Origin: an uncultured Planctomycetia bacterium
GTDB taxonomy: Bacteria > Omnitrophota > Gorgyraeia > Duberdicusellales > 4484-171
Assembly: GCA_964629655.1 (NCBI GenBank)
Contig: CAZVQU010000001.1
Location: 484,056-548,055 of the forward strand
Reading direction: 5' to 3'
DNA: 64,000 nt
Made by a program: the position numbers and the translations under genes. Below, in pieces: positions 258-14,149 of this stretch. Under the pieces are notes generated by a model, which did no database searches, was not told where the DNA came from, and was given only the letters and a program-made list of their open reading frames with translations. Every line of letters starts with the position of its first letter. The stretch's first letter is position 1.

Positions 258-491
258 TTACTGTTTCTTCTTTTCAATTACTCCAACAATTTCATTAAGG
301 GTAGAAAACTTAGTAATCTCATTAGTCTCAATTTTTATACCAAAGTGTTTATTAAAGGTAACTACTAACTCTACCATCTCTGTTGAATCAACACCTATAG
401 AGTCATACAATTTCTGGTCTTCTTTGATCTCGCTTTCTTCTATATCCAAAGTCTTGCTTATAATTCCAAGGACCTCTTCTTTTAAATCCAT
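258..491 (-). CDS. Acyl carrier protein (start at the internal MDLKEE ATG, ~77 aa)
   Basis: Small acidic 4-helix-type sequence. The LYDSIGVDSTEMVELV motif carries the phosphopantetheine Ser in the DS(L/T) position. It sits immediately after the KS/CLF pair. The upstream part of the tracked ORF overlaps the CLF stop, so the internal ATG is preferred. Confidence 0.8.
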   Translation of the reverse strand: MDLKEEVLGIISKTLDIEESEIKEDQKLYDSIGVDSTEMVELVVTFNKHFGIKIETNEITKFSTLNEIVGVIEKKKQ

Positions 492-501
492 AGATACCTC
501 C

Positions 502-1737
502 CTATTCTTTCTCAATAGCCAAAACAACATTTATCCCGCCCCGGCCTCTGGCAATAATCAGGGCTTTATTTATCTTTCTTTGTTTAAGTTTATTTGGTGT
601 GTAATCTAAATCGCAATAAGGATCGCTCATCACCTGGTTAATCGTCGGTATTGCTATTGAGTTTTTCATTGAAAGAAGAGTGACAATTAAATCTAAAGCA
701 CTCTGAGCACCTAATAAATTACCATAGATGCTCTTAGGAGCACTAAGGGTAATATTTTCTATTTCTTTGCCAAATACATTCTTTAAGGCCTTAGTCTCAA
801 GATAATCTCCAACTACAGTCGCCTCGCCATCTAGACAGATATAGTCTATATCTGTCTTATTCCAATCAGCATCCTTTAAGCATTCCTCGATTGCATATTC
901 TAAATCATCTGATTCCGGAGCATATCTTGAATAGTGATAGCCATCAGAGGAAAAGCCTATCCCCCTAATAAATCCGTAAATAGGAACTTCTCTCTTCTTG
1001 GCTTTAGATTCTTTCTCAAGAACCACCATTCCTGAACCCTCACCTAAGACAAAACCATCTCTATCTAAATCATAAGGTTTGTATGCTGTTTTAGGATTAA
1101 GATTGTTTTTTGATAAACTCCCGCAAGTATTTGCGCTCAGCAAAGCATAAGGAGTAATCGGGGCTTCCATCCCACCAGCTAATACAAAATCATTTTTATC
1201 CTGAGCTATTACTTTAGCGCCATACCATAAGCTCAAAGCTGATGAAGCCTTATCGGCAACTATGGTCTTGCTATACCCCTTAAAGCCATAGTATATAGTA
1301 ACCTGACCTTGGGGCGCTGCCGGAAACCAAGCTGAAGCCATATAAGGAGAGATGCCTTCTCTTCCTTCTATATACATATCTCTTAGTTCAGTCTCGGCAA
1401 AGAGCCAGCCACCAATAGCATTACCCATAAACACACCAACTCTATCCTTATCAATTTTCTCTAAATCCATTCCCGAATCCTTTATAGCTTGTTCGCAAGC
1501 AACTAGGGCCATATGAGAAAAAACATCTATCTTCTTAACTAATCTTCCTGAAACATGCGAGTAGTGATCAAGCTCATGGACTTGGCCGGCAATCCGAGAA
1601 GGATAAAGACTAGTGTCAAACCTCTCAATTTCGTCGACAAAAGATTCGCATTTTTTGAGGTTAGCCCAAAAAGTTTCTTTTTTCAATCCACAAGGTGAAA
1701 CTACACCTAGACCGGTTATTGCAACTCTATCACTCAT
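502..1737 (-). CDS. Ketosynthase-like chain-length-factor (KS-beta/CLF-type) protein lacking the catalytic triad
   Basis: Thiolase-fold KS homolog with an N-terminal VAITGLGVVSP. The region that aligns with the KS active-site Cys (TIVADKASSALSLWYGA) has no Cys. Both His motifs are absent (ICLDGEATVVGD and IYGNLLGAQSALD). The stop is 3 nt before the KS start. Confidence 0.75.
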   Translation of the reverse strand: MSDRVAITGLGVVSPCGLKKETFWANLKKCESFVDEIERFDTSLYPSRIAGQVHELDHYSHVSGRLVKKIDVFSHMALVACEQAIKDSGMDLEKIDKDRVGVFMGNAIGGWLFAETELRDMYIEGREGISPYMASAWFPAAPQGQVTIYYGFKGYSKTIVADKASSALSLWYGAKVIAQDKNDFVLAGGMEAPITPYALLSANTCGSLSKNNLNPKTAYKPYDLDRDGFVLGEGSGMVVLEKESKAKKREVPIYGFIRGIGFSSDGYHYSRYAPESDDLEYAIEECLKDADWNKTDIDYICLDGEATVVGDYLETKALKNVFGKEIENITLSAPKSIYGNLLGAQSALDLIVTLLSMKNSIAIPTINQVMSDPYCDLDYTPNKLKQRKINKALIIARGRGGINVVLAIEKE

Positions 1738-1740
1738 TGG

Positions 1741-3012
1741 CTACCTCCACCTCTTAAATACAATAGAAGAATGAATTCCAGAAAACCCACTGCTAGTTTT
1801 AAGTATATATTCCGGTGAAATCTGTCTTTTCTTATTAGGAATATAATCTAGGTCGCACTTAGGATCAGGTTCTTCCTGATTAATGGTTGGCGGAAGATAC
1901 CCTTTCTTAAAAATCATACAACATAATACGCTCTCTACAGCATTAGCAGCTGCTAGGGGATGACCAATCATTGACTTAATCGAACTTATCGGCACCTTAT
2001 AAGCAAAATCTCCTAAAACTTTTTTGTAAGCGTTAGTTTCAAAGGCATCATTCTGCCGGGTAGATGATCCGTGAGCATTTATGTAACCGATATCCTCATT
2101 CTTTATCCCTGAATTCTCTATTGCTTGGCGCATAGAACGAGCCATAGGTTCGCCGTCTTCGGGCAAATCAGTCATATGATAGGCATTGCAACTTGTCCCA
2201 TAGCCGAGGATTTCAGCATAAATATCGGCCCCTCTGGCCTTAGCATGTTCTAATTCCTCTAAAATCAAAATTCCGGCTGCCTCACTAATAACAAAACCAT
2301 TTCGCTTATTATCAAAAGGACGGCTAGCCTTATGAGGTTCATCGTTATTCTTAGCCAAAACGCTTACTACATCAAAAGCTCCAAAGGTAATCGGTGTAAT
2401 TGGTGCTTCAGTTGCTCCAGCAATAACTAGATCTTGTCTTCCCTCTTGAATAAGCTCATAGGCAAAGCCTAAAGAATCGGTTCCGGCAGTACAACCAGTT
2501 GAGACTGTACAATTCATCCCCTTTGCCCCATAAACAGCACCTATCTCAGCGCTGGGAGTATTAAACATAGCCGCATCATAAAGATAGGGACGGCCCTTTC
2601 GGGGATCAATCGGGTTTTTGCCCCAGTCAGTAACTAATAAAAACTCCTCTTCCATAAAACGGGTTCCGCAAATAGCATTTGCTAGGATCACACCGCATCT
2701 GCGCCTGTCTAGTTTATCAAAATCTAGATTGGCGTCTTCTACTGCTCCCTTAGCAGCAGCAATCCCAAATTGAACATACCTATCCATACGTTTATGGTCA
2801 GTTATGCCAAATTTTAAAGGATCGAAATTCAAATCTTGGGAAGCAATCTTTGAAATGAATAAACTTACATCAAAGTTCTCAACCCTTTCAATGCAAGGTT
2901 TACCGTCAACTAGATTGTTATAGAATTCATTCTTTTCTTCTCCGGCCGCAGAGATAACTCCGATTCCAGTAATCACTACTCTCTTCACTTCTCTTTCCTC
3001 CTTAAAATGCAA
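1741..3012 (-). CDS. Beta-ketoacyl-ACP synthase (KAS I/II / KS-alpha-like), catalytically complete
   Basis: Active-site Cys in VSTGCTAGTDSLG, His in NAHGSSTRQND, and the second His in MIGHPLAAANAVES. Start region VVITGIGVISAAG. 423 aa. Confidence 0.85.
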   Translation of the reverse strand: MHFKEEREVKRVVITGIGVISAAGEEKNEFYNNLVDGKPCIERVENFDVSLFISKIASQDLNFDPLKFGITDHKRMDRYVQFGIAAAKGAVEDANLDFDKLDRRRCGVILANAICGTRFMEEEFLLVTDWGKNPIDPRKGRPYLYDAAMFNTPSAEIGAVYGAKGMNCTVSTGCTAGTDSLGFAYELIQEGRQDLVIAGATEAPITPITFGAFDVVSVLAKNNDEPHKASRPFDNKRNGFVISEAAGILILEELEHAKARGADIYAEILGYGTSCNAYHMTDLPEDGEPMARSMRQAIENSGIKNEDIGYINAHGSSTRQNDAFETNAYKKVLGDFAYKVPISSIKSMIGHPLAAANAVESVLCCMIFKKGYLPPTINQEEPDPKCDLDYIPNKKRQISPEYILKTSSGFSGIHSSIVFKRWR

Positions 3013-3021
3013 AAGCTAATC

Positions 3022-3600
3022 TCACTTTCTCGAAACTTTAAAAATAATATTCCCGCCATCGGGACAGGTAACTGTATCGATAGAATTCTGATCGTTCATG
3101 AAGTGAAATTTTGCACCAAAATTTAGGGCAAACAGGGCCGGGAAAGCTGTATGCCAGGCTGCTCCGCAAAACCCAGGAATACACTTTAGGCCTTCGGTTT
3201 CCCACTTATCACCTACTTTATAGTTGTAAAAACACTTACCCTTCGCCTTAACAACTTCAATAACCATTTTTTTCGGATTCGGGCCTTTAAAATCAGGGTC
3301 TTTGCCAACTAGCTCAACCTTACCCTCTTTATTAAAGATCTCAACCTTAAACTCTAACTTCCCCCCGTCAGGACAAGTTACTAACAAAGACCTTTGATTA
3401 TCCATAAAAGGAAATTTTGCTCCAAAACTTAAAGCATAAATTACCGGAAATAATGCATGGGCCAAACCTAAACAAAAGTGTTTAGGTGGATGAGTAAAAT
3501 CCTCTAGAATAAGTTCGTCGCCAGCCTTATAGCCATGATAACAATCTCCATAAACATTAAGCACTGTTAATTTTAATTTTGGGAAAGGTGTTTTAACCAT
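3022..3600 (-). CDS. Tandem duplication of a ~90-aa Cys-containing domain resembling the uncharacterised TIGR04076 family
   Basis: Two internal repeats share GDC(Y/F)..YK.GD, a (H/K).(F)C(L/G)..A....FP block, and TCPDGG.(I/L).FKV. Three Cys per repeat. No other family signature. Confidence 0.45.
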   Translation of the reverse strand: MVKTPFPKLKLTVLNVYGDCYHGYKAGDELILEDFTHPPKHFCLGLAHALFPVIYALSFGAKFPFMDNQRSLLVTCPDGGKLEFKVEIFNKEGKVELVGKDPDFKGPNPKKMVIEVVKAKGKCFYNYKVGDKWETEGLKCIPGFCGAAWHTAFPALFALNFGAKFHFMNDQNSIDTVTCPDGGNIIFKVSRK

Positions 3601-3601
3601 A

Positions 3602-4597
3602 TTACATCTCCATTTCTTTTAATAATTCTCCCCTTTCAAGAAATTTCTTGGACTCCTCTACCCTGTGAACTAGGTCAACTATTTTACTGTTTAGTGGAGA
3701 TTGAAGATTGTTCTCAGAAGCTATTCTCACAATTTCCCCGTTAATATAATCAATCTCCGAGGGCCTACCGCTCTTTATGCTCTGTAATATTGAACCAAAA
3801 AGAGGCTCTTTGCTCAAAGAGGTCATTACTTTTGAAAAAATACCAGAAGCTTCTTCTATGCCCATTGAAACTAGCCCTTCTAATCTGGCTTTGGGGTAAG
3901 TAGGCAAATCGGCTAACTCTATGCCACTACCTTTAGCAACATCAAGGGCTTCTTTGTTTAGCTTTATTGCTAGCTTTGCAAAATTTACATCAGAAAAGGT
4001 CTCTTGCATAGATAAACCTAAAATTGCCGGAATACAATTATTGAGATTGATAAACAGTTTAAGGTATTTAGCCCCTTTTATTTTATCTAGAACTGCTACA
4101 TCAAAAGCAGATTTCAAAAGGCCTTCTACCTCTCTTATATTGACTACTTCTTTATCAAAAATATTGCCTAATATTAAGCTACCTTTAAAATTATGAACGA
4201 TTTTATTCGGTCGATAAAAGGTTGCCCCAAACATCACAATGCCGGTTACAATCTGCCCTTTAGAGAAATACTCACTCAATATATAATCAGCTCTTACTCC
4301 ATTCTGAGTACTAAGAATAGTCGCATCTTTTAAATATTCTAAATTTTCATTTACTAAAACCTCTAGATCGTTTAACTTGCTGGCGAAAATGGCCAAGTCC
4401 ACTCTCTGTTTAAGCTTATTATCAACTCTTACCTTATAGGTATCTTTACCGCTTGGGCCTTCAATCAGCAAGCCATCCTTAAGCAAAGACTCCTTCTGGT
4501 AATCCTTAGCTATACCGAGAACATCAACACTCTTCCCAGAGAGATACCCTAAAAATAATCCGCCAATTGCCCCACAACCTAAGACTGCTACTTTCAT
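3602..4597 (-). CDS. 2-dehydropantoate 2-reductase (ketopantoate reductase, PanE/ApbA) family NAD(P)H-dependent oxidoreductase
   Basis: Rossmann MKVAVLGCGAIGG at the preferred internal start. C-terminal KPR signature GSILQSIKSGRPSEIDYINGEIV. Conserved Lys in GAKYLKLFINL. The tracked ORF extends to 4636, but the ATG at 4595-4597 gives the canonical N-terminus. Confidence 0.8.
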   Translation of the reverse strand: MKVAVLGCGAIGGLFLGYLSGKSVDVLGIAKDYQKESLLKDGLLIEGPSGKDTYKVRVDNKLKQRVDLAIFASKLNDLEVLVNENLEYLKDATILSTQNGVRADYILSEYFSKGQIVTGIVMFGATFYRPNKIVHNFKGSLILGNIFDKEVVNIREVEGLLKSAFDVAVLDKIKGAKYLKLFINLNNCIPAILGLSMQETFSDVNFAKLAIKLNKEALDVAKGSGIELADLPTYPKARLEGLVSMGIEEASGIFSKVMTSLSKEPLFGSILQSIKSGRPSEIDYINGEIVRIASENNLQSPLNSKIVDLVHRVEESKKFLERGELLKEMEM

Positions 4598-4601
4598 TTT
4601 T

Positions 4602-4868
4602 CTACTTCTCTTGGCTAATGTATTGTGAATAATCAATATTTAATTGATTAAGCAGCCTCTGGAGCATATCTTTAAAGGCTGGGGGAACCTCCTGAAAAAA
4701 GGCAACAATTAAATCTTTATCCTCAACCTGTTTAGAATCTCTTGCCTTAGCTAACTCCTCAGACTTCTGCTTAATAAGTTGCTCAGCAATTGTTCTATGG
4801 AATTGCGGTAGATTCTCAACTACTCTATTGAACTTGCTCTTTGTCTCTTGGTTCCAGATAATTTCCAT
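4602..4868 (-). CDS. Small protein with a PCP_red-like domain (protochlorophyllide reductase BchB C-terminal domain family, PF08369-like)
   Basis: Pattern IIW.QE...KFNRVVENLPQFHRTIAEQLIKQKSEELAKAR matches the W..E...(V)..P.F.R...E..A...G layout of PCP_red domains. A strong SD (GAAGGAG) lies 11 nt upstream of the ATG. Confidence 0.4.
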   Translation of the reverse strand: MEIIWNQETKSKFNRVVENLPQFHRTIAEQLIKQKSEELAKARDSKQVEDKDLIVAFFQEVPPAFKDMLQRLLNQLNIDYSQYISQEK

Positions 4869-4886: not shown

Positions 4887-5621
4887 TTATAATTTATCAA
4901 TAACTGAGAATGCTAAATCAGCCATTTTCATCTCAGCCTCAAAGAATCTATAGTCAGCAAATCCTAATGTCCCGGTAATAAGATTATCGGACACTGCTAA
5001 GACGGCTGCGACTTTTCTTTTGTAGATATTAGCTAGGGTCACGAACGGTGAAGTTACCATATCAACGGCAACCGCACCCTTCTCAATATAAGGATTAACT
5101 ATTTCTTTAGTCTCTCTAAATAAAGCATCAGTTGTCCATACTCCTCCTTGATGCAAGATACCAGCGTTTTTAAAAACATCTTCTATCTTCGATGTCAATT
5201 CGCTGTCTACCTTAGATAGATAATTATCATCTACATAATACTTAGTTGCGCCGTCTCCTCGAATAATATCAGTAGCCAAGATGTAATCTCCAACATTTAT
5301 ATCTTCCCTTAAGGCTCCGCAAGAACCAAGCCTGATTAAAGTGTTGATCCCACCAACACATAAAAACTCAGTAACAAAGGCTGAATCAGGAGCATAAAAT
5401 CCGCCGTTGCCAACAGTCACTTTTTTGCCTTTATAAAACCCTGTCCAGAAAGTATAGCCCAGAAAGGTGAAGTTCTTTACGCAATTCTCTAATTTCTCTA
5501 AGCACATCTTTGCTCTATGCTGCTGGCCGCTAATTAAAGCGATTTCGCCAAAATCGCCATCTTTAAATTGTAAAGAGCCAAGAAGTTCTTTGGGGCTAAG
5601 ATGAATATCTCTTTGCATCAT
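4887..5621 (-). CDS. Purine nucleoside phosphorylase / nucleosidase (PNP_UDP_1 family, DeoD-like)
   Basis: GDFGEIALISGQQHRAK and IRLGSCGAL match the DeoD GDFADVVLMPGDPLRAK and IRVGSCGAV. VAVDMV and VSDNL correspond to the EME and SDH(I) catalytic region. 244 aa. It overlaps the ligase gene by 4 nt. Confidence 0.75.
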   Translation of the reverse strand: MMQRDIHLSPKELLGSLQFKDGDFGEIALISGQQHRAKMCLEKLENCVKNFTFLGYTFWTGFYKGKKVTVGNGGFYAPDSAFVTEFLCVGGINTLIRLGSCGALREDINVGDYILATDIIRGDGATKYYVDDNYLSKVDSELTSKIEDVFKNAGILHQGGVWTTDALFRETKEIVNPYIEKGAVAVDMVTSPFVTLANIYKRKVAAVLAVSDNLITGTLGFADYRFFEAEMKMADLAFSVIDKL

Positions 5622-7126
5622 GATTGATCTCCTGTTTTAAGTTTTCCTTTATCAACCTTCCCGGTTCTATTCTTAGGTAAGTCTTTTACAAATTCAAAGT
5701 GATGTGGAATCTTAAAATGAGCTAAGTGCTCTTTTAGAAAGTCTTTTAACTCCTGCTCACTTAAAGCCTCATCCTCTTTAGAAACTATAAATGCTTTAGG
5801 GACTTCTCCGCGTAAATTATCAGCTACGCCGATAACAGCAACTTCTTTTACCTTAGAATATCTATTTATCTTCTCTTCGACCTCAGCCGAGAAAACTACT
5901 TCACCAGCCACCTTAATCATGTCTCTTTTTCTTCCAACTATATAATGCAAGCCGTCGGAGTCAACTCTGACAATATCCCCGGTCTTAAACCACTTACTTT
6001 CAGTTAGCACCTCTTTAGTCAGACCGGGTTCTTTATAATATTCTCTCATAACCGCTTCGCCCCTGACCCAAAGTTCTCCGTGGAAGCCATTTTCTAACCT
6101 TTTACCAGCTCCATCAACAATTTTTGCCTCGAGATTAAAGTCAAAATAACCAATACTTGATATTTTACTCTCATCGCAAGGAGAAAAAGCATTAGGCGCA
6201 GAGGTTTCGGTCATGCCCCAGCCATTTAAAACTACAGCCTGAGGGCATAATTTGTGGAATCTTTTTAAGAGTATTGGCGATGAAGGTGCGCCAAAAACAA
6301 CTGCATATCTTAACGAAGAAAGGTCAAATTTGTCGTACCCTTTTAAGGAAAGAATAGCCACATACATTGCCGGAACAATGCAGAATATAGTAACTTTATG
6401 TTGTTCTATGTTCCTTAGAAACTCAGAGGGATTAAACCTGCTCATAAGAACAAGTGACGATGAAAAAGTAATCATAAGAAGTATATAGTCTAGCCCGCCA
6501 ACATGCGAGAAAGGAACTCCGCCGCACAAGAAGATATCACCTTCAGATACTCCCAGAAAATGATTAATTGTCTTAGAAGGATTATCAAGGTGTCTATACT
6601 CTAGGCTTACTCCTTTAGGATGACCGGTAGAACCAGAGGTATAAAATACAGCTGCCAAGCTATCTTCCTTATGCTCAAGCGAAGGTTGATCATAACTGCT
6701 CTCTCTTGAAATCACATCCCAAGAAGAAAATTCTCCTTCCCTCTCGGCAAATACAATTATCTCCTTTAAACTTGCACACTCACTCTTAATATTAGCCAAA
6801 TCTATTTTAGAATTGGCAATTAAAACTTTTGCCTGACTATGATTTATAAAATTAATTATCTCATTCTCAGTTAACATAAAATCCAAAGGTACTACTGCTG
6901 CCTCCATACTAAATACACCTAAAAAAGTAAAGATAGCTTCGGGAGTATTGGGTGAGAATATAGCAACTTTATCGCTGCTGTTTACGCCTATCTTAAGAAG
7001 ATAGTTGGCGAGCTTAAATGAAGAGTCCCTAACTTCAGAGAAAGTAATTGCTTTACCCTGAAATAAAATGGCTGATTTTTGAGGATATTTTTCAGCCTGT
7101 TTGGTGAGTAATTCTCTTATATTCAT
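5618..7126 (-). CDS. AMP-dependent synthetase/ligase (fatty-acid or aryl-acid CoA/ACP ligase family)
   Basis: AMP-binding core YTSGSTGHPKGV, GWGMTE, and a C-terminal PKNRTGKVDK-type Lys. First gene of the operon, directly downstream of the promoter. Confidence 0.85.
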   Translation of the reverse strand: MNIRELLTKQAEKYPQKSAILFQGKAITFSEVRDSSFKLANYLLKIGVNSSDKVAIFSPNTPEAIFTFLGVFSMEAAVVPLDFMLTENEIINFINHSQAKVLIANSKIDLANIKSECASLKEIIVFAEREGEFSSWDVISRESSYDQPSLEHKEDSLAAVFYTSGSTGHPKGVSLEYRHLDNPSKTINHFLGVSEGDIFLCGGVPFSHVGGLDYILLMITFSSSLVLMSRFNPSEFLRNIEQHKVTIFCIVPAMYVAILSLKGYDKFDLSSLRYAVVFGAPSSPILLKRFHKLCPQAVVLNGWGMTETSAPNAFSPCDESKISSIGYFDFNLEAKIVDGAGKRLENGFHGELWVRGEAVMREYYKEPGLTKEVLTESKWFKTGDIVRVDSDGLHYIVGRKRDMIKVAGEVVFSAEVEEKINRYSKVKEVAVIGVADNLRGEVPKAFIVSKEDEALSEQELKDFLKEHLAHFKIPHHFEFVKDLPKNRTGKVDKGKLKTGDQS

Positions 7127-7205: not shown

Positions 7206-8354
7206 CTATTTTTTCCGTCTCAAGAAGCTTAAAGCCTCAAGATGCGGGGTGTGGGGGAAAAAGTCAAAAGGCTCAATGAAATCAAGGCTATATTGACCTA
7301 AGAACTCTTCCAAGTCCACAAAGAGCGCCTCAGGATTACAGGATGAATAGATGATATTCTTAGGTTCCAACCTTAAAATAGCCCTTATTATCTTGGGTGA
7401 AAGCCCGCAGCGGGGGGGGTTTACAACTAACAAATCAGTATTCTTATAAAATGCACCTTGAGTGTTAAGGAACTTTCTGGAATCAGCAGCAAAAAAAGAA
7501 ATATTATCAATTCCATTAATCTTAGCATTCTGCCAAGCTATGTCAACAATCTCCTTTTCTCTTTCTACACCCCAAACAAATTTTGCATCCCGGGCAAGAA
7601 ACATTCCGATAGAACCTACTCCGCAAAAAAGATCTAATACCTGCTCAAGGGAAGATAGTTTGGCACAATCTCTGATCTTCTTATAAAAACCTACTATGGC
7701 AGAAGGATTAACCTGAAAGAATGTATCAATACCAATTCTAAAAGTCAGATCATCTAATTTCTCTTCGATAAAAGGCTCGCCATATAAAAGTTCTTTTTTA
7801 TCAAAGACCACTGCGTCAGAGAACGAATCGCTAATAACCTGATAGATAGATTTAATCCTAGAATTTAATTTCAACGAAGTTAAAAGATCTGTGAACCCTT
7901 TAACATCCAAGGCTTCACTGCTACTGGTAACTATACCGATCATAATTTCTTTAGTGAATTTTGTTTCCCGAATAATTAAGTAACGCAGAAACCCTTGATG
8001 AGAATACTTATTATATACAGAATGCTTTCTCTTCTTAAAGAAATCTTTAATTGCTTTTATCAGGTCTCCTAAATCTGGAGAAAAGATAAGACATTCCTCT
8101 ATGTCTACCACCTTCCGCCTCTGCCTCTTGCTATAAAGGCCACAGACAAGTTCCTCCTGATCAGCAAAACTAAATTCCATCTTATTGCGATAGTACTCTG
8201 GATTAGAGGAATTAATCGGCCTTACCCCGGTATCAATTTTATGAGAAGTAGCTAAATCCTTAACCTTAGCTTCCTTGACAGCAAGCTGTTCTTTGTAAGG
8301 AATATCCTGGAAGCGACACCCTCCACACTCAAAGAAATGCTTACAAGTTCTCAT
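7206..8354 (-). CDS. 23S rRNA (uracil-C5)-methyltransferase RlmD/RumA family (no TRAM domain)
   Basis: N-terminal 4Fe-4S Cys cluster CKHFFECGGCRFQ. Class I SAM MTase motifs LDLFCGVGSIG. C-terminal catalytic Cys in YSSCNP. Confidence 0.7.
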   Translation of the reverse strand: MRTCKHFFECGGCRFQDIPYKEQLAVKEAKVKDLATSHKIDTGVRPINSSNPEYYRNKMEFSFADQEELVCGLYSKRQRRKVVDIEECLIFSPDLGDLIKAIKDFFKKRKHSVYNKYSHQGFLRYLIIRETKFTKEIMIGIVTSSSEALDVKGFTDLLTSLKLNSRIKSIYQVISDSFSDAVVFDKKELLYGEPFIEEKLDDLTFRIGIDTFFQVNPSAIVGFYKKIRDCAKLSSLEQVLDLFCGVGSIGMFLARDAKFVWGVEREKEIVDIAWQNAKINGIDNISFFAADSRKFLNTQGAFYKNTDLLVVNPPRCGLSPKIIRAILRLEPKNIIYSSCNPEALFVDLEEFLGQYSLDFIEPFDFFPHTPHLEALSFLRRKK

Positions 8355-8845
8355 CTTATGATTAAATCCTTTAACTTCTTTCGCCTTGGGCCTCGGGGAA
8401 AATCAAGAGGGAAACCTAGAGCTAAAACTGCTGCTAGCTCTAAGTTTTTAGGGGTTTTCAAGAGTTTGTGAAGCCGGGTTTTTTGATTTAAAATTTCACC
8501 TAACCAACAAGCCCCCAGGCCTTTAGAGTGAATAGAGATAAGCATATTCTGGATACAGGCACCGATTGCCATTAAATCCTTATCGCGGTTATAAGAATCT
8601 CCTTTATCAAAGAATACCACTATAAGCTTATCGGCACCTTTTACTATATCGGAATATTTTGTGCACTCAGCTAAAGAATCTTTGGCCTCTTTTACCAAAA
8701 CCATAAACTTCCAAGGTTGATTGTTGAGCCCTGAAGGAGCCCAGCGACCGGCCTCCAGAATGTTATCGATAATCTCTTTGCTAACATCTTTATTCTTGAA
8801 TCTCCTTACTGATCTTCTTGTCTTTATAAGTTCTAAAATATCCAT
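8351..8845 (-). CDS. Nitroreductase family protein
   Basis: IKTRRSVRRF start and GAxxQN(M)(L) motifs typical of FMN nitroreductases. 4-nt overlap with the downstream gene. Confidence 0.7.
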   Translation of the reverse strand: MDILELIKTRRSVRRFKNKDVSKEIIDNILEAGRWAPSGLNNQPWKFMVLVKEAKDSLAECTKYSDIVKGADKLIVVFFDKGDSYNRDKDLMAIGACIQNMLISIHSKGLGACWLGEILNQKTRLHKLLKTPKNLELAAVLALGFPLDFPRGPRRKKLKDLIIR

Positions 8846-8864
8846 AGTAATTACTTCCGGTGAA

Positions 8865-9773
8865 CTAAGCCCACCAATAGCCTAATTCTTTTAATATCCG
8901 CGGCCGATCCTGCCAATCTTCCAAAACCTTAACCCAAATATCTAAAAAGACTTTCTTATTGTAAATCTTCTCTATTTCTGGACGCGAGCGGCTTCCTACT
9001 TCCTTAAGTACTTCTCCGGCCTTGCCAATAACGATTCTCTTCTGAGAATTTCTCTTAACATAGATATTGGCTCTTATCGAAACTATCTTTTTCTTATTAT
9101 TTATCTCCTCGATCTCAACTGCTATAGAGTGCGGTAATTCTTTCTTAAGCTGCAAGAATAACTTTTCCCTTATGATGTCAGCAAGGCGAAATTTAAGCGG
9201 AAAATCAGTTAAAGAATTTGTATCATAATAAGGATGGGACTGTGGCAAGTTTTCTAAAATAGAATCTCTTAACTTATCAACGTCTTTTCCGGTCTTGGCT
9301 GATAAAGGCATGTAATAAATTAAAGGATTTCTCTTGCTCTCTGTCTTTTCAGCCCATAAATCAATGTAAGTATTAAGATACTTAAGCCCTAAGTCAACCT
9401 TATTTAAAACCATAATTGTTTTAACCCTTTGTCCGGTAATAATCCGCATTAACTCTGCCTCTTCCTTGCCGGGACGCCGAGATATATCCACCACATAAAT
9501 GACTAGATCGCAACCTTCCAGGGCTCTTTTAGCAACTGCATTTAAGTGCGAAGCTAACTTATCCTCAAAAGAATGGATACCCGGGGTATCAACAAAAATA
9601 ACTTGGGCATTTTCTAGATTTAGAATTCCTTTTATCTGATGGCGCGTGGTCTGGGGAATAGGAGAGATAATACTCACCTTATTATCTATCAGGGCATTAA
9701 GAAGGGTGGATTTGCCTACATTGGGCCTACCAAGAATAGTTACAAACCCTGATTTAAATTTTTTATTTTTCAT
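8865..9773 (-). CDS. era: GTPase Era
   Basis: G1 GRPNVGKSTLLN, DTPG, NKVD, and a C-terminal KH domain. Confidence 0.9.
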   Translation of the reverse strand: MKNKKFKSGFVTILGRPNVGKSTLLNALIDNKVSIISPIPQTTRHQIKGILNLENAQVIFVDTPGIHSFEDKLASHLNAVAKRALEGCDLVIYVVDISRRPGKEEAELMRIITGQRVKTIMVLNKVDLGLKYLNTYIDLWAEKTESKRNPLIYYMPLSAKTGKDVDKLRDSILENLPQSHPYYDTNSLTDFPLKFRLADIIREKLFLQLKKELPHSIAVEIEEINNKKKIVSIRANIYVKRNSQKRIVIGKAGEVLKEVGSRSRPEIEKIYNKKVFLDIWVKVLEDWQDRPRILKELGYWWA

Positions 9774-9791
9774 TTTCGCGAAAAGGTTATT

Positions 9792-11789
9792 TTATCCTTC
9801 CTTATAGCCCATCTTTAAAGACAGATCCAAAAACTCTCCCTTTAAAGGATTATAGCCGTGGTAGGCGAGTAGAAAATAAGCTGTTGAGGCAAGAGAACCG
9901 GTTCTACTTCCCTTGGGAGTCCGCCAACCGTGTCCGGTATCAACAAAAGGACTAGAAGCATAAGGAAGGCAAGGATCTGCCCGGCCGATACGAGAAGGAG
10001 AAGTTATAAGCATTTTCTGCAATTCATTAAAATAAAAAAACGCTTTTTCTAAATATTCTTTAGATTTCTTGGGATTTTTGTCTTTAAAATAATCGGCCAT
10101 AACCTCAAAAGCTAAAATCATCTGAGACGTCCACTCTCCGGATACTACCCCTCCCCGGGGAGCATTTTTAACTTTAGCAAAATCAAAGCCTCTTAATTTA
10201 ACCTCTCCTTTTTTCCGTTTAAATTTTGCGCCAACCTCACAATGTTCAACAGCAAACTTTAGAATTGACTCCGGATTCATCTTCAAAGATAAAAGATCTC
10301 CAGGGCCAAAAGCAGTTATTGACCACGCATAAGTATCAGTAGCTATAGTAGAATCACCTTTACCTCTTTTAACTAAAGACCCGTAATCGGTATAGGAATA
10401 GCGTGAAATCCACCTCTTTACGTTCTCAGCGGTATTCAAATGTTTTTTCTTGCCAGTAACCTCATAAAACAACTTAAAAAAAGCAGAAACATCTAGATTG
10501 TGCTCGGTAGAATACCAAGGCAAATCCGGGCCTCCTCTTACCCCGCCTTCACCATCCATCATTGCCAAGAGGAAATTAGATACTTTCTTAACTATAGGTA
10601 GGTACTTTTTATCACCAGTTTCCTTGGTATAGCAAAGAGCCGCCAAACCCAACCAAGCATTTGGTCCGCTATGAAGCACATACTCAAAGACATCACCTTG
10701 AGTAAAGTAAGCATTGTAAATATCCTGACCTTGGTTTATCTTCTTGAGGTAAAAGTCTAATATTTTCTCAGCTCTAAGTTTATCCCCGGAAATAAGAAAT
10801 ACAATAGCCGCTAAAGACTGATCATAAGTAAAACAAACTCTCTCTAAACTGTTATCCCCTTCATAGCTTAATACCAATCCCCTCCTTAAATCCTGACGGT
10901 TCTTTATCCAACCATACATTCCTTTAATTATCTTCTGGGAAGATTTTACCTCTTCTCTTTGCAGACTTTCAACTGCCTCTTGAATCTCCGAGACTGCGGT
11001 TTTGCTCTCTTTTTCTTTGGTCTTTAAAAAATCATTCTCTCTCCTGAGGCTGGCCAGCTCTAACTCAAGAACAGCAAGTTTCTTCTTAAAACCCAAAGCT
11101 TCTTCTGATGAAGTCGAACTACTATTATTGTTAGCAACCAGGGCATCATATTTGTCCTGCCAGAGAACAACCTCTTTATTGAGTGACTCAATGGCTAGCT
11201 CTAAATTCGATTGTCGCTGTTTAAGAAATTCTTCCTCGCCAAGTCCTTCTTTTAATACTTCCTCAAGAGATGAACGTTTCTCTAGAATACTCACATAATC
11301 ACTTACTAACTTTCTGTTCTTTCTTGCTAAAGAATCCATGCGCCAGAACAAAGAAAGGGAGAAGAAAATAAGCACAGTCATAATCGCACCTATGACAATC
11401 GGTGTCGATTTTTTAACTAGAGCATATCTAAATAGAGAGCTTGCTTCTCTATTGTTAGCTTTTAAAAACTTTAACCCTATTACATAACGGTTAAAATCTT
11501 TTAGTCTTTGTTTTCTAACCCAACTTGCCCGAGCCGTTAAGCACATTGGCGAATGTTTAAAGGGAAGATTTATTTTCAGGAATAGCTGAATATCTTTCTG
11601 TTTTAGGCGCTCAGCAAGCCCCCACCAAAGATCATTCATCAAGAGACAGATACCGCCCTTTCCTATATCGTGGGTAAAGCCCTGAAGCCAAGGCGTAAAT
11701 TTCTTACCATTAGCGTCAAAGACAAAAAACTCAATTGGCAAAACAGTAGAGATTCTTATATACCTTCTCTTGTCGCTTGCTTGTTTCAT
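9792..11789 (-). CDS. PilZ domain / TM helix / coiled-coil / alpha-alpha-toroid-like C-terminal domain protein
   Basis: N-terminal RRYIRIS...DIGKGG PilZ signature. One hydrophobic helix (IVIGAIMTVLIFFSLSLFW). A ~130-aa heptad-rich segment. A C-terminal ~360-aa domain with GGVRGGPD and TDTYAW motifs reminiscent of (alpha/alpha)6 hydrolase/toroid folds. The family is not identified. Confidence 0.55.
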   Translation of the reverse strand: MKQASDKRRYIRISTVLPIEFFVFDANGKKFTPWLQGFTHDIGKGGICLLMNDLWWGLAERLKQKDIQLFLKINLPFKHSPMCLTARASWVRKQRLKDFNRYVIGLKFLKANNREASSLFRYALVKKSTPIVIGAIMTVLIFFSLSLFWRMDSLARKNRKLVSDYVSILEKRSSLEEVLKEGLGEEEFLKQRQSNLELAIESLNKEVVLWQDKYDALVANNNSSSTSSEEALGFKKKLAVLELELASLRRENDFLKTKEKESKTAVSEIQEAVESLQREEVKSSQKIIKGMYGWIKNRQDLRRGLVLSYEGDNSLERVCFTYDQSLAAIVFLISGDKLRAEKILDFYLKKINQGQDIYNAYFTQGDVFEYVLHSGPNAWLGLAALCYTKETGDKKYLPIVKKVSNFLLAMMDGEGGVRGGPDLPWYSTEHNLDVSAFFKLFYEVTGKKKHLNTAENVKRWISRYSYTDYGSLVKRGKGDSTIATDTYAWSITAFGPGDLLSLKMNPESILKFAVEHCEVGAKFKRKKGEVKLRGFDFAKVKNAPRGGVVSGEWTSQMILAFEVMADYFKDKNPKKSKEYLEKAFFYFNELQKMLITSPSRIGRADPCLPYASSPFVDTGHGWRTPKGSRTGSLASTAYFLLAYHGYNPLKGEFLDLSLKMGYKEG

Positions 11790-14149
11790 TTTTTCTTTTC
11801 TAAAATTATTTCTTCACGTAAAAGGTAGAGGGCTCTTTTAAGATATTCCTTAAAATCTTCATAATCTTCTCTTTCTACAAATCTCTTTTTAACTCTGAAT
11901 AGTTGATTAAAAATAACCGAATCGGAGCCTTTCCGATAAGAGACCTCAAGTACAAACCAAGGATTTTCTAAATTAGTAGAGCGCGGTAAGTATTTGACCC
12001 TTAAATTCTTCGGCAAGGTTATGCTTATGTTTGCGCCAATATTATAAATTCCCTCAAAATCAATCGGATATTTCCTATCCTCTTTACTGATCAAAGCATG
12101 ATCAAGGTATACTTGGTCTAAGACCGGCACAATCCTTAAGTCTCTAGCTGGATTAAGAAATTCTTCGGTCTCGAATCTATAGGTAAGCATGGGTTGAATA
12201 TCAAAATCATCAACATCGCTTATCTGATAATCAATCAACTTAGACAATGATGATATCTCCATCATCTTCTGCTGGATTTCTTCCTTTATTATGGCCGGAT
12301 GAGTATACTTTAAATACCAGCGGTAAGAGGACGAGTAGAACCCTTGAGTTGATACTTGTCGCCTAATCGCTGCGCTCTCATCCTCGTTAATCACTATATC
12401 CATCTTATAAGCAAGCTTATTATCTTCTAAGGTATTAATCTTAGCTATGCGCCAAGAATCATCGGTAAATACTAATACTGACCTATCTTGATCAGCAAGA
12501 GGAACATATTCAAAAGCTGTAGTCTCAGCTGTAGGGTCCATAAAAATTAATTCCCCGTCTATCTCAACAGCACAAATAGCATGGTCAAAGATAACAGCCG
12601 GGAAGTCTCCATCCATAGAGTAAGTACTACGAGTAGGTATCAACAACGGGTATCCTTTTAAGCCGGCATGCTTTAGCATCGCCACTAAAAGAATTGCCTG
12701 ATCTTTGCAATCACCATACTTATTCATGAATACTTCATTGGCATAGTGCGGCTCATGGCCACTCTCTCCATACTCTATGGCTACATAGCGAATATTTCTA
12801 GCTACGAATTCATACAACACTTTTGCCTTGTCGTAACCAGCAATAGCATCTTTGGTTAGCTCTCCTACAAAGTCTTTTACTTCTCTGTTTAGCTTAAGTT
12901 TATCTTTGTAGAGAGACCTCCACCACTTATAGATTTCATCCCAGGAAGAAAAACTAGAGACCAAGATCGACGGGTTAATATCGGAGGCATTAGGCATGCT
13001 ATACTCGGGAATAATAGACTTTATTTCATCAAACCGCCAAGAGTATATTTTTTTGCCTTTTCTTTCAATTACCTTAGGTTCAAGGCTAACACCCTCTGCA
13101 TACTCTTTGTTTAAAAACTTAAAATTGATATCTCGATTACTGGGGACAATAAGATCAAACTCACTCTTAAAAACAGGATAGCCTTCACGAAGGCGATAAG
13201 CGAAACTAAAGTCATCTTCATTCATTAACTTGGAAGAACGAATTTTTACCTTATACTCGATAAAAGAACCAACCTCTACTGAAGGCATGGAAACAATAAA
13301 TGCTCGGGAATTGCTGTAGAGAGGGAAATTTAGATATCGACTTACATCACGAATGCTTTCCCCTCCGGCATAGATTACCTTACCATCTTTAGTTATTGTC
13401 CGGGCATATTCTAGCTCTATCTTCTCGTAGGTAGAATCATACCCCATCTCGACCTCAGCTAAACCTTTACCTCTCTCTTGCAGAATTTTCTCTATAACGT
13501 GTACCGTAGATACAGAAGTATTGTCAGGCTTAATTTCAACCTCCTCATCAACCAATAGGTATATTGCCCCCTCATCTTCTAATCTCTTAATAAATTCTTC
13601 AGCTTGCTTAGAAACAGCTACTACTTCTTCGGGAATCCTATCGTCTACCCTGACCTTAATTGATTTTACTCTTTCTAAAGCCTTGGTCTTAAAAGGGGCA
13701 CCCACTTTCTTATATATTTTAAGAGCCTTGGGAAATAAGTTTTTATCCTCCAAAACCTGTCCATAGAGATAGAGGTACTCATTATCTTTGGGAATAGGCT
13801 TTATCTGCTCAAAGATCTCAATAGCGTAATCATAGTCCTTTGCCTTGACCAAAGCTTTTACTAAAATTATCTTTGCCCCTTTATTGTCTACGCTTTCCAG
13901 AATCTCTCTTACCTGTGAATAATCTTTAAAATCATAGTAAAGCTTCGCTAACTTAAGCTTCAGCTCTAAATCATCAGGGTTAAGCTCTAGGAGCTGACGA
14001 TGCTGCGTAACTAACTCCTGATAACGACCTTTAAGCTCTTCTAAACCGATAACACTATCGTCGGAAGGCCCTTTGGAGGTTTGGACGCAACCAAGTGAGC
14101 CAAGAAAAAGTATTATTACTATTAGCTTAGGTAATGATTTTAGAAACAT
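11786..14149 (-). CDS. Lipoprotein with TPR repeats, a DUF3857-like region and a transglutaminase-like cysteine protease domain
   Basis: Lipobox LGSLGCV. N-terminal TPR-like repeats. Transglutaminase core GDCKDQAILLVAMLKHAGL with downstream His/Asp. 4-nt overlap with the PilZ gene. Confidence 0.6.
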   Translation of the reverse strand: MFLKSLPKLIVIILFLGSLGCVQTSKGPSDDSVIGLEELKGRYQELVTQHRQLLELNPDDLELKLKLAKLYYDFKDYSQVREILESVDNKGAKIILVKALVKAKDYDYAIEIFEQIKPIPKDNEYLYLYGQVLEDKNLFPKALKIYKKVGAPFKTKALERVKSIKVRVDDRIPEEVVAVSKQAEEFIKRLEDEGAIYLLVDEEVEIKPDNTSVSTVHVIEKILQERGKGLAEVEMGYDSTYEKIELEYARTITKDGKVIYAGGESIRDVSRYLNFPLYSNSRAFIVSMPSVEVGSFIEYKVKIRSSKLMNEDDFSFAYRLREGYPVFKSEFDLIVPSNRDINFKFLNKEYAEGVSLEPKVIERKGKKIYSWRFDEIKSIIPEYSMPNASDINPSILVSSFSSWDEIYKWWRSLYKDKLKLNREVKDFVGELTKDAIAGYDKAKVLYEFVARNIRYVAIEYGESGHEPHYANEVFMNKYGDCKDQAILLVAMLKHAGLKGYPLLIPTRSTYSMDGDFPAVIFDHAICAVEIDGELIFMDPTAETTAFEYVPLADQDRSVLVFTDDSWRIAKINTLEDNKLAYKMDIVINEDESAAIRRQVSTQGFYSSSYRWYLKYTHPAIIKEEIQQKMMEISSLSKLIDYQISDVDDFDIQPMLTYRFETEEFLNPARDLRIVPVLDQVYLDHALISKEDRKYPIDFEGIYNIGANISITLPKNLRVKYLPRSTNLENPWFVLEVSYRKGSDSVIFNQLFRVKKRFVEREDYEDFKEYLKRALYLLREEIILEKKK

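Follow-up and report, generated by a model that had tools for sequence, protein, structure and literature searches.

Near the left edge of a 64,000-nucleotide stretch of DNA from an uncultured bacterium of the Omnitrophota (contig CAZVQU010000001.1, positions 484,056 to 548,055; the whole stretch is hereafter "the window") lies a gene for a small, cysteine-rich protein of the TIGR04076 family, a constant part of a polyketide synthase (PKS) cluster of type II in many members of this phylum. By its sequence, this 192-residue protein is a genuine two-repeat member of the family, and is best described as a fused pair of two TIGR04076 paralogues, a pseudo-heterodimer. The pair sits between genes for an ApbA-like reductase and the ketosynthase (KS), and is the slowest-evolving protein of the cluster. 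We propose, with a probability of roughly 35%, that it assists an aromatic polyketide pathway running without oxygen, as an accessory or redox subunit carrying a metal or iron–sulfur (Fe–S) centre bound by three cysteines in each repeat. The family has neither a Pfam model nor a solved structure, and no functional study of it was found in the literature searched; the locus, in which a fused subfamily is tied to an anaerobic PKS ketosynthase, provides its clearest functional anchor so far. That same literature seems to contain no report of the fused heterodimer subfamily, of its tie to type II PKS, or of its place as the best-conserved protein of the cluster.

Membership in the family is evident from score and architecture alike. 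The NCBIfam model TIGR04076 matches the protein in two stretches, with E=1.6e-30 and 105.5 bits against a curated cutoff of 33, and the protein displays the characteristic unit of about 90 residues with three cysteines (GxC ... C..A ... CPD), arranged in tandem. Aligned with each other by BLASTP, the two halves are 45% identical over 87 residues (E=1e-22), so that the internal duplication is far beyond chance. These two results sustain the proposal of the initial annotation, made from the letters alone, that the gene encodes a tandem duplication of a TIGR04076-like domain; it had allowed for halves that are dissimilar once properly aligned, and they are clearly similar. Tandem architecture as such is not new, as the name used by JGI, "uncharacterized repeat protein (TIGR04076 family)", already conveys: proteins of one, two, three, and four repeats all occur. 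The window protein is in this respect a full member, sharing the same unit and cysteine triad, whereas its subfamily is set apart by a fixed fusion of an N-type and a C-type repeat dedicated to a type II PKS cluster. Other searches returned nothing. A Pfam scan of the protein gave no match at E<=0.01, a scan of 26 family members gave nothing consistent at E up to 10, a PDB sequence search with either the protein or the family profile found no match, and neither did a tblastn search of plasmid sequences.

The duplication is evidently not recent. Repeats N and C represent distinct ancient paralogues that fall into separate orthologous groups, each resembling its counterparts in other proteins. 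Repeat N is 54% and 45% identical to the N repeats of distant relatives, as against 44% and 29% to C repeats, while repeat C is closer to other C repeats (66% and 54%). The C half is also the one to which all single-repeat family members align, and it shares 66% identity with the product of a separate 89-residue gene, P0280. On a metagenome contig, L086, the N-type (93 residues) and C-type (89 residues) units are encoded by two separate, adjacent genes, and an 82-nucleotide intergenic spacer with a ribosome-binding site occupies the place where the window protein has its linker. Because N and C form separate groups and occur here as separate neighboring genes, the window protein is a fused (pseudo-)heterodimer. 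The same contig has an aldehyde:ferredoxin oxidoreductase gene where the window has a gene for an AMP-forming ligase.

Each repeat has a triad of cysteines. The triads comprise C20, C43, and C76 in repeat N and C123, C145, and C179 in repeat C, and all six residues are invariant in 55 two-repeat proteins, in keeping with the three conserved cysteines per repeat noted at the outset. The three are equally invariant across 10 aligned single repeats, and in a set of 26 family sequences the first two never vary, conservation of the third being at least 90%. The aspartate of the CPD motif is invariant in repeat N and nearly so in repeat C; beyond it and the cysteines, the two-repeat and single-repeat alignments revealed no conserved acid or base residues. 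The motif strings first ascribed to both repeats call for slight correction. The strings "(H/K)xFC" and "A(H/W)..FP" fit repeat N only, and repeat C reads GKC rather than GDC, followed by PGFC and AWHTAFP. Repeat C has a fourth cysteine at position 140, where related sequences have "GLKTP", and Cys140 therefore looks lineage-specific. The histidine that had been suggested to complete a Cys3/His metal site fares worse than the cysteines, being replaced by lysine, glutamine, glutamate, serine, alanine, or arginine in many members: among the 55 two-repeat proteins, position 48 carries histidine in 38, lysine in 13, glutamine in 3, and glutamate in 1, position 150 carries histidine in 39, serine in 15, and alanine in 1, and the equivalent position is histidine in only 19 of 29 single-repeat members. 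Such a site is thus not borne out. Nor does the cysteine spacing, C-x22-C-x32-C, correspond to a canonical ferredoxin motif (CxxCxxC...CP or similar), which the 192-residue protein lacks, and neither the protein nor the 26 family members produced a Fer4 or Fer2 match in Pfam.

An AlphaFold2 model built on an 87-sequence alignment predicts the fold of the protein confidently, with a predicted local distance difference test score (pLDDT) of 96 and a predicted template modeling score (pTM) of 0.91. A model from the single sequence was unusable (pLDDT 43). Each repeat of about 90 residues is predicted to adopt a beta-beta-alpha-beta-beta arrangement, in which the first cysteine of the triad would lie just after strand 1, in the loop of the first hairpin, the second directly before the helix, and the third within the second hairpin's CPDGG turn, just past strand 3. 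Foldseek searches with this model produced nothing significant against the PDB (best E 0.12, query template modeling (TM) scores <= 0.29) or against BFVD. A hot-dog dehydratase fold was considered and rejected, the sole hot-dog-type entry among the PDB matches being non-significant (1vpm_C, E=5.5). A confident model with no significant PDB counterpart makes the protein a good target for structure determination.

The association with PKS genes extends far beyond the window. Close relatives of the protein fall into more than 800 clusters, of which those with a phylum-level name are all Candidatus Omnitrophota, bar a few evident mislabels of metagenome-assembled genomes (MAGs). With one genome scanned per GTDB species, relatives turned up in 188 genomes, and the loci of the best 80, labelled mostly Omnitrophota, were taken for analysis. 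Orthologues are up to 95% identical to the window protein, and several at 83–87% are already named "TIGR04076 family protein" in NCBI MAG records. In all of the best 80 loci the order ApbA-like reductase, TIGR04076 pair, KS-alpha, and then chain length factor (CLF) is kept. The ApbA-like gene lies directly upstream of the pair in 72 of 72 loci, and KS directly downstream in 72 of 77 under a strict rule; the other five still have a KS and/or CLF match downstream and are read as overlaps or split hits. The initial annotation had placed the gene inside a KS/CLF operon, which the gene order and junctions confirm, and had considered that its homologs might never accompany KS or PKS genes, whereas the compared neighborhoods show the link throughout the best 80 loci. 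Two arrangements occur, a window-like layout A and a more frequent layout B (Table 1). Orthologous clusters of this kind carry their own PF04199 cyclase, SRPBCC (TcmN-type) aromatase/cyclase, and ketoreductase (KR) of the short-chain dehydrogenase/reductase type, as well as a B12-binding radical S-adenosylmethionine (radical-SAM) enzyme that most closely resembles BchE, an anaerobic oxidative cyclase. This enzyme could oxidize a methylene of the polyketide to a carbonyl without oxygen, or methylate the polyketide.

Within the cluster, the pair stands out by its conservation. Median identities to the window proteins were computed over 53 layout-B loci, and amount to 82% for the TIGR04076 pair, 75% for the radical-SAM enzyme, 72% for the cyclase, 64% for KS, 59% for both SRPBCC and KR, 55% for CLF, 47% for the acyl carrier protein (ACP), 45% for ApbA, 41% for the DUF2621-like protein, and 38% for the major facilitator superfamily (MFS) transporter. 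The BchE-like radical-SAM enzyme is thus the second most conserved protein of the cluster. At four-fold degenerate sites of conserved residues, third-position identity across five genes (ApbA, the TIGR04076 pair, KS, CLF, and ACP) is about 0.29, so that synonymous sites are saturated. The high identity of the pair consequently stems from purifying selection on the protein, stronger than that on the ketosynthase; recent transfer and nucleotide-level constraint, both contemplated as explanations, are ruled out by the same saturation.

Outside the Omnitrophota cluster the picture is more varied. The KS link is strong but specific to certain TIGR04076 subfamilies, and most single-repeat members occur in contexts unrelated to PKS. 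A single-repeat query of the genome scan returned only Omnitrophota-type orthologues. A second type II PKS cluster with a TIGR04076 gene lies on contig L094; this gene, P0318, encodes a distant single-repeat member (about 30% identity), and a two-base gap to the adjoining alpha/beta hydrolase gene indicates translational coupling. The cluster is homologous to that of the Omnitrophota (CLF 39%, cyclase 43% identical). It is of the type represented by the ant and den clusters described below, and its homology to the Omnitrophota one is distant. A metagenome scan with P0318 yielded nothing but unrelated proteins of two repeats, none of them in a PKS context. Among about nine look-ups of distant family members, three contexts (L086, L090, and L101) have aldehyde:ferredoxin oxidoreductase genes within a few kilobases of TIGR04076 genes, and another member has, with overlapping starts, a Flavodoxin_2 quinone-reductase-like gene on one side and a glyoxalase/VOC gene on the other. 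In Bilophila, a member stands beside a glycyl-radical enzyme cluster, and the authors of that study suspected a redox or iron-cluster role. Members of three to four repeats contain 14–20 cysteines per protein, with several cysteines and "CP" motifs in each repeat; such strings of cysteine-bearing repeats fit electron-wire or binding modules better than enzymes.

How might the pair function? In the reading that we find most plausible, which the initial annotation had raised as a metal- or redox-cofactor module or a redox partner, and which rests on the invariant cysteine triad and on the redox-flavored neighbors of other family members, the three cysteines of each repeat would hold one metal centre, most likely an Fe–S cluster with a non-cysteine or open fourth position, and otherwise zinc. 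The CPD aspartate is a possible candidate for the fourth ligand. The resulting two-centre protein would be devoted, as an accessory or redox subunit, to an aromatic polyketide pathway operating without oxygen. Docked on the KS–CLF/ACP machinery, it would pass electrons to or from a tailoring enzyme of the cluster, the candidates being the ApbA-like reductase, with which it is translationally coupled, and the BchE-like B12 radical-SAM enzyme. Points in favor of a redox role are the presumably anaerobic hosts, the multi-repeat strings of the family, the redox neighbors of other members, and the electron exchange that the radical-SAM enzyme would need. The named host organisms of the orthologous loci are, we presume, anaerobes. 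For one named Omnitrophota genus, a published study inferred a fermentative lifestyle with Rnf and hydrogenases, and its locus (L010) encodes an orthologue 86% identical to the window protein.

Several observations weigh against this proposal. The cysteine spacing matches no classical ferredoxin or rubredoxin motif, and the protein has no Pfam match, no PDB sequence match, and no significant Foldseek match in the PDB. The protein is basic, with an isoelectric point (pI) of 8.7 (orthologue median 8.4), unlike typical acidic ferredoxins and flavodoxins, and this property would suit the binding of an acidic ACP no less well. Reductases of the ApbA type draw on NAD(P)H directly and require no electron carrier. 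On L094, neither an ApbA nor a radical-SAM gene is found near the TIGR04076 gene, and a redox theme is missing from roughly half of the family contexts sampled. The comparison with known small electron-transfer and metal-binding modules is one of general likeness: as with ferredoxins and rubredoxin- or zinc-ribbon-type sites, the modules are small, cysteine-dependent, single or in tandem, present in presumed anaerobes, and often near redox enzymes. The window protein differs in having no CxxCxxC...CP or CxxC motif, in the three widely spaced cysteines of each unit, and in being basic rather than acidic, and membership in those families is not claimed. Identity as a classical ferredoxin was rejected for the wrong motif together with the basic pI.

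Two further roles come into consideration. The pair may, with a somewhat lower probability, be a non-catalytic structural or adaptor subunit whose cysteine triads hold structural zinc, the basic pseudo-heterodimer docking the acidic ACP or ApbA onto KS–CLF, for example in priming or chain control. ACPs are acidic, and the basic character of the pair is complementary to theirs. Its conservation exceeds that of every enzyme in the cluster, as is typical where a protein has several interaction surfaces, its place between ApbA and KS is fixed and translationally coupled, a heterodimer would mirror that of KS and CLF, and the predicted location of cysteines in hairpin turns and at a helix start is reminiscent of structural zinc sites. 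Most family members, however, occur outside PKS clusters, which implies a more general role for the fold, and the gene on L094 is not adjacent to KS. A little more doubtful is a new kind of enzyme acting on ACP-bound or released intermediates, with either a site-differentiated three-cysteine metal or a reactive cysteine before the helix, that would catalyze oxygen-independent dehydration, reductive dehydroxylation, anthrone oxidation, or chain release. Consistent with catalysis, the three cysteines are invariant where the nearby histidine is not and no fourth ligand was identified, and aromatic residues, at 13.5% of the protein, could line a pocket for an aromatic substrate. The coupling of the L094 gene to an alpha/beta hydrolase, as well as the member found between quinone-reductase-like and glyoxalase/VOC genes, points the same way, as do anaerobic type II PKS systems such as den, for which the published account names no oxidase for the anthrone-to-anthraquinone step (PMC7693217). 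Yet strings of up to four repeats would be unusual for enzymes, no enzyme family or fold resembles the protein in Pfam, PDB, or Foldseek searches, and the alignments offer no conserved acid or base residues apart from the cysteines and the CPD aspartate. The BchE-like radical-SAM enzyme is, moreover, the more obvious candidate for an oxygen-free oxidation.

The remaining alternatives appear improbable. The initial annotation had seen a candidate substitute for the cyclase/aromatase of type II PKS, an idea favored by a gene that adjoins KS and CLF in a window with no complete cyclase gene. The window, however, merely ends inside a PF04199 cyclase gene, and since it starts inside the cluster, the operon looked cyclase-free from the window alone; orthologous clusters possess a PF04199 cyclase, an SRPBCC cyclase, and a KR. 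The protein has no Pfam match to cyclase families (SRPBCC/TcmN, PF04199, TcmI, SnoaL, cupin), and the Foldseek PDB matches list no cyclase. With dedicated cyclases in the cluster and no resemblance to any of them, substitution for a cyclase is strongly disfavored. Least probable of all is a chaperone for a cofactor such as a pterin, distantly like the N-terminal domain of XdhC/CoxI proteins. Structures of that family provide two of the ten best, non-significant Foldseek matches, 2we7 (probability 0.38) and 3on5 (0.21), and genes for aldehyde:ferredoxin oxidoreductase, a tungstopterin enzyme, lie near TIGR04076 genes in three contexts. Against this, the two matches have E-values of 0.17 and 1.6 and query TM-scores <= 0.29, Pfam XdhC_CoxI is matched by none of the family members even when E as high as 10 is allowed, and no molybdenum or tungsten enzyme was seen in the Omnitrophota clusters.

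The cluster has an architecture described as "ancestral", comprising KS, CLF, ACP, TcmN, and OxyN, in the type II PKS of anaerobes and Gram-negatives (PMC7693217). With such non-actinomycete systems for anthraquinone-type polyphenols (Photorhabdus ant/AQ-256, Dendrosporobacter den, and the clostridial clr and wex), the Omnitrophota cluster shares a common core of KS-alpha, CLF, ACP, PF04199 cyclase, TcmN-type SRPBCC cyclase, and KR. To this core it adds, as constants, the TIGR04076 pair, the ApbA-like reductase, the DUF2621-like protein, and the BchE-like B12 radical-SAM enzyme. The ant cluster has an acyl-CoA ligase, AntG, as layout A has an acyl-CoA ligase, and to our knowledge no TIGR04076 gene is named in the published account of ant. 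The published account of den names none either (PMC7693217). A further difference lies in CLF, in which the Omnitrophota protein has lysine rather than the classical glutamine at the active-site position. KS–CLF pairs from Omnitrophica are listed in a type II PKS catalogue (PMC10132072); beyond that listing and antiSMASH "ladderane" calls, no description of the Omnitrophota cluster was found in the literature searched.

What the pair would contribute to the field depends on which role is correct. A cofactor-bearing redox or accessory subunit would be a new component in the type II PKS toolbox, bearing on oxygen-free tailoring of aromatic polyketides, while a module that only binds structural zinc would be of modest, specialist interest. 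A more far-reaching version would have TIGR04076 constitute a new metal or Fe–S cofactor fold, its N/C heterodimer acting with the BchE-like radical-SAM enzyme as an oxygen-independent redox component that, for example, oxidizes the methylene of an anthrone to a quinone carbonyl in the absence of O2, in a type II PKS pathway widespread in Omnitrophota and evolving like primary metabolism. Taken jointly, these propositions are decidedly unlikely. If true, they would explain the making of anthraquinone-type polyketides in strict anaerobes, and could bring to light a polyketide quinone that serves as an electron carrier.

Features of the window and of the loci compared with it are collected in Table 1.

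Table 1. The TIGR04076 gene and its parts, the neighboring genes of the cluster in the window, and the arrangements seen at other loci (coordinates are those of the window unless a locus is named).
Feature	Location	Strand	Description
Two-repeat TIGR04076 protein	3022..3600	minus	192 aa plus TGA stop at 3022-3024; open reading frame (ORF), translation and TIGR04076 match
Repeat N, "DFTHPPxHFC" type	3322..3600	minus	aa 1-93; Cys20, Cys43, Cys76; predicted beta-beta-alpha-beta-beta
Linker	3277..3321	minus	aa 94-108; outside the segments aligned half against half; almost without regular secondary structure in the model
Repeat C, "GLKxxxGFCGAAxH" type	3025..3276	minus	aa 109-192; Cys123, Cys145, Cys179, and the extra Cys140
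AMP-forming acyl-CoA/ACP ligase	5618..7126	minus	PF00501 and PF13193; apparently the first operon gene in the window layout; conserved in layout A
PNP_UDP_1 phosphorylase/nucleosidase-family protein	4887..5621	minus	PF01048, E=1.7e-33; present in layout A clusters
DUF2621-like small protein	4602..4868	minus	88 aa; PF11084, E=1.6e-9
ApbA/ketopantoate-reductase-like NAD(P)H oxidoreductase	3602..4636	minus	PF02558 and PF08546; TIGR00745 at 148 bits
Ketosynthase KS-alpha	1741..3012	minus	FabF-like at 455 bits; Cys172/His312/His348 triad from pairwise alignment
CLF-like ketosynthase beta	502..1737	minus	32% identical to KS; catalytic Cys/His/His replaced by Lys161/Asp/Asn
ACP	258..530	minus	PF00550, E=2.6e-12
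PF04199 (OxyN/AntC-type) cyclase, first 79 aa	3..239	minus	80% identical to the L003 cyclase in tblastn (E=6e-37)
B12-binding radical-SAM enzyme (B12-rSAM)	L003:18287-19747		orthologous cluster, outside the window; closest to BchE, E=4e-62, below the model cutoff
Layout A, window-like (12 loci)			AMP-ligase, PNP, DUF2621-like, ApbA, TIGR04076 pair, KS, CLF, ACP, cyclase, SRPBCC, MFS, KR, B12-rSAM
Layout B (53 loci)			DUF2621-like, ApbA, TIGR04076 pair, KS, CLF, B12-rSAM, ACP, cyclase, SRPBCC, optional MFS, KR
Split locus	L086:1-6563		aldehyde:ferredoxin oxidoreductase-like 627-aa protein, ApbA, 93-aa N-type, 89-aa C-type, KS, CLF, ACP
Second type II PKS cluster	L094:1-12291		KS, CLF, PF04199 cyclase, two-domain TcmN-type cyclase, KR, two small ORFs, TIGR04076, alpha/beta hydrolase, then TetR and efflux genes

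The genes of the cluster in the window are tightly packed. A single base separates the stop codon of the ApbA-like gene from the ATG of the TIGR04076 gene, a junction that marks the two as translationally coupled; the ApbA-like gene itself probably starts at Met14, near 4597. KS probably starts at a GTG at 2988, behind an AAGGAGG ribosome-binding site and 33 nucleotides past the TIGR04076 stop. Judged by its residues, the CLF-like protein is non-catalytic and has lysine where actinomycete CLFs classically have glutamine, a loss that suggests priming by the AMP-ligase of the cluster rather than by decarboxylation. In nearly every locus that extends so far, the DUF2621-like gene lies directly upstream of ApbA; it diverges fast, at about 41% identity. 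The PNP_UDP_1-family protein gives a weak match to models of methylthioadenosine/S-adenosylhomocysteine (MTA/SAH) nucleosidases (E=1.6e-9), and might clear the 5'-deoxyadenosine or SAH made by the radical-SAM enzyme. The cluster runs past the left edge of the window, and the orthologous loci place the remainder of the cyclase, together with the SRPBCC, MFS, KR, and radical-SAM genes, beyond that edge.

Many orthologous contigs titled "uncultured Planctomycetia/Planctomycetales", "Patescibacteria group", "Thermodesulfobacteriota", or "Victivallales" among L006-L085 have the same cluster as named Omnitrophota MAGs, and these titles are probably taxonomic mislabels of MAGs. Upstream of the cluster in the window (7206..14149, minus strand), genes for a tRNA U5-methyltransferase-like protein, a nitroreductase, an Era-like GTPase, a 665-residue protein, and a 787-residue DUF3857/transglutaminase-like protein follow the same order as in locus L003. 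This shared gene order indicates that the cluster occupies a stable chromosomal neighborhood and not a mobile island.

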